64,000 nucleotides of DNA, taken from positions 2,821,188 to 2,885,187 of the forward strand of contig JADJRK010000001.1 in the NCBI GenBank assembly GCA_016712285.1, given 5' to 3'. This DNA comes from Planctomycetota bacterium (GTDB lineage: Bacteria > Planctomycetota > UBA8742 > UBA2392). Under the pieces are notes generated by a model that made no database searches, had not been told where the DNA came from, and was given only the letters and a program-made list of their open reading frames with translations. Position numbers and translations under genes: made by a program. How positions within the stretch are numbered: position 1 is the first letter of the stretch; the number at the start of each line of letters is the position of its first letter. Positions 14,597-38,236 of the stretch are shown in pieces.

Positions 14597-14679
14597 CGCC
14601 CCTGGCGGGGCTTTGGGTCTTTCCGGGCGGTTTACCGGTGGCTTCCGCCACCGGCTATTGGCGGCCGCCCCTGCGGGGC
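14597..14679. repeat. cluster of GC-rich REP-like hairpins next to the IS200-like transposase gene
   Basis: Three short palindromes read from sequence: gcccc-tggc-ggggc, ccggtggc-ttcc-gccaccgg, ccgcccc-tgc-ggggcgg. Confidence 0.45.
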
Positions 14680-14708
14680 GGTACTGCCCTGGCGACATCG
14701 ACGGGCGG

Positions 14709-34645: not shown

Positions 34646-34970
34646 CGGCGTGACTTGTGTGCAGGCTTGAGGAAAGGCCGGAATTTCAGGCATTTGCCCG
34701 GCTTCGCGTGTTCGCGAGGCCAAATCCCGCTGTTTGAAAAACCGCGAACCCCGACACGAAAAAATGCCCAAAAGAGACGCACACATGACTTAGCGCGTGG
34801 TATGTTACCCGCGTTGACAACCACAGCTTACGCCGACCCGTATGGAGTTGGTTTCCTTTAAGGGGGGGAATCTGGCTTCGGTGTCGGTACGCGCAGGCGG
34901 GCAGGATCGTGACTTCGATTTTTAAGGGGGATTGAAGTTATCTCTGTTCGCCTGCGCACCTAATCCCTTC

Positions 34971-35003
34971 GCCCGGCGCCCACAAGGCGCCGGGTTCGTT
35001 TTT
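34971..35003 (+). terminator. intrinsic terminator/attenuator hairpin in the infC leader
   Basis: cccggcgcc-cacaa-ggcgccggg followed by ttcgtttttt, about 140 nt upstream of the infC ATG; a further inverted repeat (gcgcaggcg / cgcctgcgc) lies upstream at about 34889-34957. Confidence 0.55.
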
Positions 35004-35143
35004 TCGTGCCGAGGCCGCAGCCACCGGCGCGGAACCCGCTACGCCCGGTTGTGGAAAAACTCTCTGCTGCTATCATCCCGCCGCCAATTGACTTACCGGC
35101 GCGCCCGACGGGTGCGCCTTTATGCTGCTGCCAGAAGGAGTCT

Positions 35144-35815
35144 ATGCGAGCAAAACGGCCACCCCCGGTTACCGCATTTCGCGGGCCGCAGACTGAGCAC
35201 CGCATCAATCGACGCATTCGCATTCCGCGCGTGCAGTTGATTGACCATGAAGGCACGAATCACGGGGAGCTGGCGACGGAAGATGCGCTGAAACTGGCCG
35301 AAGAAGCCGGTTTGGACCTCGTGGAAGTCAGCCCGACCGCACGCCCGCCCGTGTGCAAGATCATGAATTACGGGCAGTATAAGTACTCGCTGAAGAAGCG
35401 GGCCAAGGGCAACAAGGCTCACCAGGCCAAGGTCAAGGGCATACGGCTTCACCCGAATACAGCCGAGCATGACGTGCAGGTAGCATTGAAGAAAAGCATC
35501 GGGTTCCTGGAGCGCGGCGACAAGGTGCTGATCCAGGTGTGGTTCAAGGGCCGTGAGCTTGCGCACTCAGAGCGCGGCGACGAGATCCTGAAGCGCTTTA
35601 TCGAGGAACTGAAGGACCTGAGCAAGGTTGAATCGCCGATCCGCCGTGAAGGCAAGCGCATGCACCTGCTGCTGACGCCGATGACGCCGGAAGAGCGCAA
35701 CGCCCGCAAAAAGCAGATCGAAAAAGACAAAGAAAAGGCCATGGAACTGCGCATCAAGCAGGCCAAAGAAGAAGCCGCCAAAAAAGCAGAGGCAGAGAAG
35801 GCCCAACAAAGCTAA
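35144..35815 (+). CDS. infC: translation initiation factor IF-3 with Lys-rich C-terminal extension
   Basis: Part of track ORF 35006..35815; IF-3 core (INRRIRIPRVQLIDHEG...VCKIMNYGQYKY); ATG at 35144 preceded by GAAGGAG. Confidence 0.85.
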   Translation: MRAKRPPPVTAFRGPQTEHRINRRIRIPRVQLIDHEGTNHGELATEDALKLAEEAGLDLVEVSPTARPPVCKIMNYGQYKYSLKKRAKGNKAHQAKVKGIRLHPNTAEHDVQVALKKSIGFLERGDKVLIQVWFKGRELAHSERGDEILKRFIEELKDLSKVESPIRREGKRMHLLLTPMTPEERNARKKQIEKDKEKAMELRIKQAKEEAAKKAEAEKAQQS

Positions 35816-35949
35816 AAGCTTCACCCCGCAATGGTCGCGGGAAACAGTGACCGGCACCTGTTGCACAAGCAGCGGGGCCAAACAGAGACGCGCACGGCGG
35901 TTCCAAGTCGAACCAGGTTCGCCCGGCGTGACGTCGAAAGGACAGAGAC

Positions 35950-36201
35950 ATGCCGAAGATGAAGACCCACAAGGGCGCGTCCAAGCGCTTCAAGGTCACC
36001 AAGAAGGGCAAGATCAAGCACCACAACGCGGGTCGCTCGCACTTGATGAGCACCAAGAGCCCCAAGCGCCGCCGCAACAAGCGCCGCACCCACCTGCTGA
36101 GCCCGACCCACGCGCGCAACGTCGCCAAGCTGATGGGCGTGCGTCGCAAGCCGCCTGCGCCGACACCGCCGCAGAGCGAGTTGAAAGAACAGGCAAGCTA
36201 G
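35950..36201 (+). CDS. rpmI: 50S ribosomal protein L35 (with C-terminal extension)
   Basis: MPKMKTHKGASKRFKVTKKGKIKHHNAGRSH matches the L35 N-terminus; position between infC and rplT. Confidence 0.85.
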   Translation: MPKMKTHKGASKRFKVTKKGKIKHHNAGRSHLMSTKSPKRRRNKRRTHLLSPTHARNVAKLMGVRRKPPAPTPPQSELKEQAS

Positions 36202-36316
36202 GCAATACGCTTCACCGCCGGTCTCAAGTCGAGTGTGAACTCGCCCGGCACAATCGGTACGCCAACCGGATTCAAGTCGGGCCAGGCCCGCCCGGAAGGC
36301 ACCAAGGAGAAGGCAC

Positions 36317-36670
36317 ATGGCACACGCAGTCAGCCGGGTAGCGCGCCACGCGCGCAAGAAGAAGTTCCGCAAACTCGCCAAGGGATACTGGGGCCGCCGC
36401 CGCACGACGTACCGGCAGGCGCGCGTCGCCGTTGAACGCGCATGGCGCTACGCGTGGTTCCATCGCATGGCCCGCAAGCGCGACTTCCGGCGCCTCTGGA
36501 TCACGCGCCTCAACGCCGCCGCACGCATGCACGGGGTGACTTACAGCCAGCTGATTCACCTGCTGGACAAAGCCGGCATCGAGCTGAACCGCAAGAGCCT
36601 GAGTGAGCTGGCCATCCGCGACCCCAACGCCTTTGCCAAGGTCATGGAACAGGCCAAGTCAGCCAAGTAG
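36317..36670 (+). CDS. rplT: 50S ribosomal protein L20
   Basis: Basic N-terminus and conserved L20 core ([45 protein letters not shown]); AAGGAGAAGG upstream. Confidence 0.9.
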
Positions 36671-36739
36671 CTGTCACAATCCGGGTGTAAAACAGATCGC
36701 CCGCGCACACGCGCGGGCGATTCATGTTTGCTCGGGCAC

Positions 36740-38236
36740 TCAATCGTGCCGCAGGGCCTTCACGGGGTCGATGCGTGCGGCGCGCCGGGCCGGGAAGATC
36801 GCCGCCAGCACGGCCGTGACAGCGCCCAAAGCCGGGCCGGCCAGCGCAAGCCAGAGCGGCAGGACGAACACGCTGCCATTGTAGGGCACGGCTGCGCGCT
36901 CGGCGATCATGCTGCCGGCGATTGCGTCGCCGGGAATCATCGCGAGCACAGCCACGAGCAGGCCGAGCGTGCCGCCGATCAAGCCGATCAACGCGCTTTC
37001 GGTCAGGAACACCGCCTGCACCTGCCAGTTGGTGGCGCCGACGGCTTTGAAAATGCCGATCTCGCGGGTGCGCTCCAGCACGCTGGTGATCATGGTGTTG
37101 ACGATGCCCAGCGTGCTGACGATCAATGCGATGCCAGTCAGAAACGCGATGATCACCGTGATCACGGTCAGCATCGTCTCGACCTGTTGGAGCACACTGG
37201 CGACGCTGAAGGCTGTGAATCCCTTATCGCGCAGCGCTTGCTCAACGGCAGGCGCGTTCTCGGCGTCGTCCACCAGCACCAGTGCCCGCGGATAGCCAAG
37301 CTCACGGTTCACGGCGCTGGCATTGAACAGGTTGCGTGCTGTCCCTTGCGGAAGAAACACGTCGGTCTGGACCGCGTTGCCGTCCTCAATCACGTTGAAC
37401 ACGTCGCCGGGCACGGCTTCGCGCAGCACGCCGACGATGGTGACCTGGCGTTCCACGGGCTTGCGGGCCTGGCTGGCGATCTGCCCGAACTGTTCCAGCA
37501 GCTTGGGCAGGATCTTCATCATCGCCTGGCGCTCTTCTTCGGTCAGGCTTTCCATGAAGGCGCGCAGTTGCGGCGGCGCGTCTGCCATCGGGTCGTCGTT
37601 GGGGTTCACGATGCTGCGCAGCATGATCGTCTTGCCCAGCACCTGCTGGTAGTCCTGCTCGGTCAGCAGGCCCATCTTGTACAGCATGTACTCGTGCAGG
37701 ATGACTTCGTCGGCGTCGGGCCCGCTGAAGTAGCGCCCGGCAATCACGCGCTCGGCATAGCGCTGCCGCGCCACATCCACGCCGCCGCTAAGGCTGCCTT
37801 CGCTGCTCCATGCCCCGGCATCGATCGCGTAGCGTTCAATGATCACGGGCGTAATGCTCTCGACGTGCTCAAGCTGCGACAGCGCGGCGATGGTCGTGTC
37901 GTCGATCTCGTTCACGCGGCGGCCGCTCCACTGGCGGATCTGCCGGCGGTTGATCGCCGCACGCCGCAATCTCTCGCGCCGGTCTTCTTCCATTTCGCCG
38001 TCGATCTGCACCTCGGCCGGGTTGTTCGACAGCTCAATGCCGAAGCCCCCCGTCAAGCCGATCTGCCGCAGGTTGTCGCTGCCGCTGACGGTGTCGGTGA
38101 TCGCGCTGCTCAGGCCCTGCCCCAGCGAAACAATCATGGTCAGCGCGAACACGCCGATCAGCACGCCCGTCATGGTCAGCAGGTTGCGCGACTTCTTGCG
38201 CAGCAGGCCTTCCAGCGCCAGAGCCAGGACGTTCAT
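36740..38236 (-). CDS. ABC transporter permease (FtsX/MacB-like)
   Basis: N-terminal TM helix, large periplasmic domain and C-terminal FtsX-like four-helix region; stop overlaps the ATPase gene; + ORF 36728..38296 is an antisense shadow. Confidence 0.8.
   Translation of the reverse strand: MNVLALALEGLLRKKSRNLLTMTGVLIGVFALTMIVSLGQGLSSAITDTVSGSDNLRQIGLTGGFGIELSNNPAEVQIDGEMEEDRRERLRRAAINRRQIRQWSGRRVNEIDDTTIAALSQLEHVESITPVIIERYAIDAGAWSSEGSLSGGVDVARQRYAERVIAGRYFSGPDADEVILHEYMLYKMGLLTEQDYQQVLGKTIMLRSIVNPNDDPMADAPPQLRAFMESLTEEERQAMMKILPKLLEQFGQIASQARKPVERQVTIVGVLREAVPGDVFNVIEDGNAVQTDVFLPQGTARNLFNASAVNRELGYPRALVLVDDAENAPAVEQALRDKGFTAFSVASVLQQVETMLTVITVIIAFLTGIALIVSTLGIVNTMITSVLERTREIGIFKAVGATNWQVQAVFLTESALIGLIGGTLGLLVAVLAMIPGDAIAGSMIAERAAVPYNGSVFVLPLWLALAGPALGAVTAVLAAIFPARRAARIDPVKALRHD

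Follow-up and report, generated by a model that had tools for sequence, protein, structure and literature searches.

What a short unit repeated three times within a ribosomal-protein operon might be doing is the question raised by the infC-rpmI-rplT cluster of a Planctomycetota genome, which we analyzed within a stretch of 64,000 nucleotides (hereafter, the window). A first-pass annotation, made from the DNA letters, had noticed a motif of about 32 nt in the two spacers of this cluster and had proposed that its repetition reflected a shared RNA-level signal, of which an autoregulatory protein-binding site was listed first, followed by a processing site and a translational-coupling structure. 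The genes and signals around the units are as follows.

35144..35815, + strand: infC (IF3), the first gene of the cluster, from the ORF list and the sequence; start uncertain
35936..35942, + strand: Shine-Dalgarno-like GAAAGGA of rpmI, read from the sequence
35950..36201, + strand: rpmI (L35), 83 aa with a Pro-rich C-terminal extension, from the ORF list; homologues carry PF01632
36304..36309, + strand: Shine-Dalgarno sequence AAGGAG of rplT, read from the sequence
36317..36670, + strand: rplT (L20), the proposed repressor, from the ORF list and protein comparison with E. coli L20
36695..36722, + strand: intrinsic-terminator-like hairpin with a T-rich tail, end of the transcription unit, from a terminator scan

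The start of infC can be placed at the ATG at 35144, which follows AAGGAG, or at the GTG at 35006 given in the mechanical ORF list; the infC homologues in related loci contain the IF3_N and IF3_C domains. Over 105 residues, which take in the RNA-binding C-terminal domain, the L20 protein encoded in the window was 50% identical to E. coli L20. The L35 proteins of the clade to which the window belongs (P0001-P0026) were 78-96 aa long through a Pro-rich C-terminal extension (...RRKPPAPTPPQSELKEQAS), and those of other phyla retrieved in the same search were mostly 64-66 aa long. About 15 nt before the infC Shine-Dalgarno sequence lies a GC-rich hairpin, GGCGCGCCCGACGGGTGCGCC then TTTATGCTGC (window 35098-35118, + strand), which a simple scan flagged as terminator-like and which might influence infC expression. 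Elsewhere in the window, positions 14635-14680 (+ strand) matched the Rfam family RF01687, Acido-Lenti-1 RNA, at 38.4 bits against a gathering score of 37 bits.

All three of the annotated units were present, at positions 35896-35928, 36217-36249, and 36265-36295. The pattern CAAGTCG-N7-12-CGCCCGG had three exact matches in the 64-kb window, on the + strand only and all within the infC-rpmI and rpmI-rplT spacers, and no match in 100 dinucleotide-preserving shuffles, indicating that the units are real and not a product of chance. When the units were folded as single sequences, the same hairpin was predicted for each: a CCGG/CCGG outer stem, six loop bases confined to the 5' strand (UUCCAA, UCUCAA, and AUUCAA, respectively), an isolated G-C pair, one bulged U, an upper stem of five pairs, and a closing loop of 3-4 nt, with no unpaired bases on the 3' strand. 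The extents of the predicted hairpins are given below, together with their scores under the covariance model R1 described later.

35887..35935, + strand: Site 1, extended hairpin before rpmI, from the MFE fold; R1 38.7 bits, E ~2e-7
36217..36249, + strand: Site 2, distal extra copy in the rpmI-rplT spacer, from the MFE and centroid folds; R1 44.6 bits
36256..36303, + strand: Site 3, extended hairpin before rplT, MFE structure identical to the centroid structure; best R1 score, 47.6 bits

The core junction of Site 1 occupies 35897-35926 (CGG-UUCCAA-G-U-CGAAC-CAG-GUUCG-C-CCG); its outer stem ends 23 nt before the rpmI ATG, and the lower pairing predicted for it stops immediately 5' of the Shine-Dalgarno sequence of rpmI. 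Site 2 reads GCCGG-UCUCAA-G-U-CGAGU-GUGA-ACUCG-C-CCGGC. The core of Site 3 lies at 36266-36295 (CCGG-AUUCAA-G-U-CGGGC-CAG-GCCCG-C-CCGG); position 36303, immediately 5' of the Shine-Dalgarno sequence of rplT, is the last of its lower stem (GGU..GCC..//..GGCACC), and its outer stem ends 21 nt before the ATG. The description of every unit as standing just upstream of a ribosome-binding site therefore holds for 35897-35926 (rpmI) and 36266-36295 (rplT), which lie 21-23 nt before an ATG, and fails for 36218-36248, which begins 16 nt past the stop codon of rpmI and leaves 68 nt to the start of rplT.

Nor are the units near-identical, as they had first been called. What they share is an invariant core, CGG...CAAGU...C-CCG, and the middle varies by compensatory base changes, the strands of the upper stem being CGAAC/GUUCG, CGAGU/ACUCG, and CGGGC/GCCCG in the three units. 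These paired changes point to a hairpin and not to a plain sequence repeat. The individual hairpins were not more stable than shuffled sequence (z -0.3 to -1.0), and the folding energies of the two whole spacers were not significant (z -0.77 and -1.35); the support for the hairpins is comparative, not thermodynamic. Two more hairpins were seen 5' of Site 1, at approximately 35823-35843 and 35853-35879 of the infC-rpmI spacer (35816-35895). They could be aligned only in the two closest relatives, L001 and L002, where the stem at ~35853-35879 showed U.G to U-A or C-G changes, and no T-run follows them.

A scan based on rplT, with one genome per species, placed the window in a Planctomycetota lineage of metagenome-assembled genomes. 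L20 identity to the window was 99% in L001 and L002 and 78-84% in L003-L007; the next loci, at 58% or less, belonged to other phyla. A protein search with L35 and contig look-ups added 11 further loci of the clade, giving 18 related loci, or 19 clade sources with the window itself; the sequence of one of them, L165, is truncated just upstream of rpmI and contributed its rplT spacer only. In all 18 related Planctomycetota loci, every readable spacer contained the motif or a variant. Among the seven loci L001-L007, each had a hairpin before rpmI and another before rplT, with differing upper-stem sequences (the variants of L005 and L007 included). Before rpmI, a canonical site was found in 16 of the 18 loci with sequence there, and the other two, L005 and L164, had variants without the AA (AUUGAGAC); before rplT, 18 of 19 loci had a canonical site, and L007 had a variant without the AA (UCUGAGC). 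A second copy in the rpmI-rplT spacer was confined, among the 19 clade sources, to the window, L001, L002, and L004.

The spacing of the hairpin to the start codon was also regular. In 28 of the 30 gene-proximal instances, the outer stem ended 20-25 nt before the start codon (median, 22), for rpmI and rplT alike, and about 10 nt before the Shine-Dalgarno sequence, and in the single-sequence folds of many relatives the lower stem reached to within 0-4 nt of the Shine-Dalgarno sequence. The spacers were 66-115 nt long, and rpmI and rplT each had their own Shine-Dalgarno sequence. In several relatives, the rpmI site was separated from infC by a terminator and by a promoter-like sequence; in these genomes, the rpmI-site hairpin would sit in the true 5' leader of an rpmI-rplT transcript.

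We built the covariance model R1 from 14 instances (alignment A1). It found 36 instances, 32 of them distinct, in the 19 clade sources, and no other match at E<0.1 in the window, its flanks, or 153 rpmI/rplT loci of other phyla (~0.7 Mb in total). A metagenome scan with L35 returned, among the matches listed, only distant L35 genes of other phyla, which were used as a negative set. When the 32 distinct instances (19 loci) were aligned, standard pairs were formed in 98.1% of cells, compared with 33-53% in slide controls; six of the 10 pairs had changed on both sides, and the covariation score was 0.39, compared with 0.02-0.11 when the partners were slid by one to three columns. This alignment was fitted to the model, and a hand-picked MAFFT alignment gave the same picture. 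RNAalifold predicted the same hairpin, including the isolated G-C pair and the bulge. The three outer pairs beside the loop (C-G, G-C, and G-C), the AAG, and the G-C pair were invariant, and the upper stem varied freely. The AAG was present in 36 of 36 aligned instances, and pairs 6-37 and 7-36 were G-C in 32 and 31 of the 32 distinct rows, respectively, forming two consecutive G-C pairs of the lower helix.

Chance similarity, a dispersed (REP-like) repeat, or a terminator element might be invoked instead, since GC-rich DNA such as that of this genome commonly contains short CCGG-rich hairpins. The shuffles, the absence of further R1 matches from the window and the ~0.7 Mb of loci, and the retention of the motif with compensatory changes across 19 loci speak against these possibilities, as does the lack of a T-run after the hairpins, where no terminator was called. 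We regard all three as extremely improbable. The same results settle two points raised in the first-pass annotation: the motif is not a common genome-wide repeat, with three copies in 64 kb and none outside the two spacers, and it is present in the homologous spacers of all the related genomes examined.

Conserved hairpins in intercistronic spacers could also be structural mRNA elements with no role for L20, such as determinants of RNase processing or stability, ribosome standby sites, or coupling structures, and the distal copy lies just past the rpmI stop codon, where a terminating ribosome could melt it. A generic hairpin of this kind, however, needs no invariant asymmetric loop ending in AA, no G-C pair with a bulge, and no invariant G-C closing pairs, a combination that matches both E. 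coli site 2 and the L20 site in 23S rRNA (see below), and the fixed distance to the start codon points to control of initiation. We therefore consider a purely structural role unlikely. Nothing specific was found in favor of the processing site or the translational-coupling structure suggested at first, and the evidence favors the protein-binding option.

A separate conserved structured RNA was observed upstream of infC, at window positions 34853-35005 (+ strand), with an MFE z-score of -5.25. It begins with the 5' end UUCCUUUAAGGGGGGGAA, continues with a hairpin of ~67 nt (34891-34957) in whose loop UUUUUAAGGGGGA appears again, and contains an intrinsic terminator with a T-run at 34971-34995. 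It was found at 80-90% identity, always upstream of infC, in L001, L003, L005, L006, L162, L163, L168, and L169, with compensatory changes in the apical and terminator stems, and it matched no Rfam family in a scan of 34800-36800 at E up to 10. This RNA could be an sRNA gene or an attenuator-type leader of infC.

The protein most likely to bind the units was suggested by their likeness to 23S rRNA. For this comparison, E. coli rrlH was aligned to the Rfam bacterial large-subunit (LSU) model, which gave the consensus GGu-CCCuAA-g-u(bulged)-gcgggc...gcccgc-c-aCC at helices 40 and 41 (H40/H41), and the motif reads CGG-NNNCAA-G-U-helix...helix-C-CCG. Compared with the E. coli and bacterial consensus rRNAs, the motif has the topology, the AAGU, and the single 3'-side C of the H40/H41 junction, the primary site of L20. 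Two differences were apparent. H41 of the rRNA is long and branched (~140 nt), whereas the motif has a capped stem of 4-7 bp instead; and in the rRNA a U-A pair stands between the GG/CC pairs and the loop, whereas the G-C pairs of the motif adjoin the loop (CGG-NNNCAA versus GGU-CCCNAA).

We expressed this topology as a descriptor. It called for two consecutive G-C pairs in the outer stem, a loop of 5-7 nt with AA at its end, a G-C pair with a single bulged base, 4 bp or more in the inner stem, and a 3'-side C. A version that required the G-C pairs directly beside the loop missed the E. coli 23S junction, which was recovered when one intervening pair was allowed. The descriptor found the E. 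coli 23S junction, the three copies in the window, and a hairpin in the E. coli infC-rpmI spacer; its frequency was 5.7 matches per kb in the clade spacers, compared with 0.08 per kb in the background. The E. coli hairpin, GGC-CUUCAA-G-U-AGCA...UGUU-C-GCC, lies at the first bases of the intergenic region and is L20 operator site 2 in the numbering of Allemand et al. 2007 (PMC1888825). In that site, iris1-2 are GG, iris8-9 are AA, and iris53-55 (GCC) form the lower helix; changing AA to UU weakens L20 binding, and a lower-helix mutation abolishes repression (PMC1888825). These determinants, the AA and the G-C pairs of the lower helix, were invariant across the 36 motif instances. L20 binds the H40/H41 junction through its C-terminal domain (Allemand et al. 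2007, PMC1888825; Choonee et al. 2007, PMC1865079), L20 leaders share two consecutive G-C pairs and an AA dimer (Eckert and Weinberg 2020, PMC7247131), and the AA dinucleotide has also been described as an L20 determinant elsewhere (PMC3616713). The invariant parts of the motif are exactly the L20-leader determinants of Eckert and Weinberg. The autoregulatory protein-binding site that headed the list of the first-pass annotation thus gained support from the match of the hairpins to both H40/H41 and E. coli site 2.

Another RNA-binding protein, such as L35 or IF3, might bind the hairpins in place of L20: one site precedes rpmI, the operon also encodes IF3 and L35, and the shift of the G-C pairs by one pair relative to the rRNA leaves some room for a different partner. 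Nevertheless, the match is to the very junction bound by the L20 C-terminal domain, and L20 is the regulator of this operon in E. coli as well as in B. subtilis (PMC1888825, PMC1865079). We consider a partner other than L20 very unlikely.

The resemblance to E. coli operator site 2 comprises a lower helix with two consecutive G-C pairs, a 5'-side loop of 6 nt with CAA at its end, a G-C pair followed by a bulged U and an upper helix, and a 3' strand without interruption, as well as a location upstream of rpmI in the same operon; translational control by L20 is presumed here. Beyond this core, there is no sequence homology, the upper helix is much shorter in our motif (4-7 bp), and the G-C pairs of the E. 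coli site lie one pair further from the loop (GGC-CUUCAA). E. coli site 2, an imperfect stem-loop, is reportedly also described by Guillier 2002/2005. The E. coli operator needs a second, pseudoknotted site (site 1), in which infC coding sequence pairs over a long range with the region beside the rpmI Shine-Dalgarno sequence; the terminator and promoter-like sequence between infC and the hairpin in several relatives would argue against a need for infC sequence in this clade. In E. coli, L20 represses rpmI directly and rplT through coupling (PMC1888825), whereas the Planctomycetota lineage has a separate site before rplT itself, doubled in the window.

The first-pass annotation had also pointed to the L20-leader family of Rfam, RF00558, but this family had no match, either at the gathering threshold in the window or at E up to 10 in 34800-36800. 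In the same scans, no Rfam 15 family fell on the motif. The E. coli L20 operator is not covered by any Rfam 15 family either, so this negative result rules out only RF00558-like leaders. The Firmicutes L20 leader (RF00558, B. subtilis) likewise mimics H40/H41; it responds to L20 and has two conserved adenosines beside the upper helix (PMC1865079), but its place is upstream of infC, where a terminator/antiterminator switch brings about transcription attenuation (PMC1865079). The copies described here lie downstream of infC, with no terminator-like site after them, and neither R1 nor the topology descriptor found an L20-type site upstream of infC. Assignment of the motif to the Firmicutes leader was ruled out by the lack of an RF00558 match, the lack of a terminator, and the different location. 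The L20 r-leader candidate of Deltaproteobacteria, compared by its description (PMC7247131), keeps the AA dimer and the two G-C pairs on another scaffold and in another lineage.

In Bacteroidota loci (Cytophagales, Flavobacteriales, and Chitinophagaceae), a single AU-rich hairpin with the same H40/H41 topology was observed 20-55 nt upstream of rplT, for example GGU-AACUAA-G-U-GAUU...AAUC-C-ACC and GGC-CCCUAA-G-A-GAG...CUC-C-GCC. Its positions are 2947-2978 in L054 and in L061, 2950-2977 in L072, 2953-2980 in L057, 2949-2979 in L016, and ~2950-2985 in L024. Compared with the motif, these hairpins were single-copy, were not seen before rpmI, had no R1 match, and belonged to no Rfam 15 family. 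They are candidates for the same type of L20 operator in a second phylum.

Taken together, we consider it probable, at roughly 0.8, that the units are mRNA operator hairpins that imitate 23S H40/H41, through which L20 represses the translation of rpmI and rplT by feedback; we infer the binding and the block of initiation. L20 in excess of free 23S rRNA would bind the hairpins, and the bound complex, lying against the Shine-Dalgarno sequence, would repress translation initiation by competition with the 30S subunit. Repression would be exerted separately at rpmI (L35) and at rplT (L20 itself), and the distal copy in the rpmI-rplT spacer would be a second L20 site of the rplT operator. Such competition would be expected because the proximal hairpins stop about 10 nt short of the Shine-Dalgarno sequence, with their predicted lower stems reaching up to it. 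Since the Shine-Dalgarno sequences were mostly unpaired in the predicted folds, repression would have to be by steric competition. It is conceivable that the extra distal copy raises the sensitivity of the operator or responds to ribosomes terminating on rpmI, although this is speculation.

Bound L20 could also have an outcome other than competition with the 30S subunit, such as entrapment of the 30S subunit, recruitment of an RNase leading to decay, or local capture of nascent L20. This possibility is suggested by the finding that the Shine-Dalgarno sequences are not sequestered in the predicted folds and by the distance of the distal copy from the rplT Shine-Dalgarno sequence, ~55 nt, too far for a direct block. 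The proximal hairpins, however, abut the Shine-Dalgarno sequence, and Haentjens-Sitri et al. 2008 (J Mol Biol 375:612) reportedly describe, going by the title of the paper, a competition mechanism for the E. coli L35/L20 operon. Such alternative outcomes are, in our estimation, quite unlikely. Sequestration of the Shine-Dalgarno sequence was considered separately: the pyrimidine-rich stretch GCUUCACC follows both stop codons in the window and, in one MFE fold, is base-paired to the Shine-Dalgarno sequence of rplT. Even L001 and L002 do not conserve this stretch, however, and relatives mostly have unpaired Shine-Dalgarno sequences, and sequestration was therefore rejected as a general mechanism.

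We also put forward a broader proposal, tentatively and at somewhat less than even odds: that the minimal H40/H41 hairpin recurs as an L20 operator in distant phyla, whether through repeated evolution or ancient origin, namely in this clade, in several Bacteroidota orders, and as site 2 in Gammaproteobacteria; that rpmI and rplT here have separate operators instead of coupling; and that the tandem pair is cooperative or more sensitive.

Autoregulation by L20 through rRNA mimicry is a textbook case, but to our knowledge its documented occurrence is limited to Gammaproteobacteria and Firmicutes, plus a single candidate in Deltaproteobacteria; our literature search found no L20 leader in Planctomycetota. 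The principle of rRNA mimicry is already known; what is new here is an L20-type layout in one Planctomycetota group with one predicted operator per cistron, a result that is well supported but unsurprising. If the proposed role is correct, a Planctomycetota version of this autoregulation would be added, with the simplest scaffold to date, in essence a bare H40/H41 junction under a short stem, and with sites placed independently before both putatively regulated genes and sometimes duplicated. The hairpin is a candidate new RNA family, absent from Rfam 15. At ~30 nt, it would be a compact natural substrate for studies of L20-RNA recognition, and it would offer a clean example of how ribosomal-protein operators repeatedly arise by the copying of rRNA.
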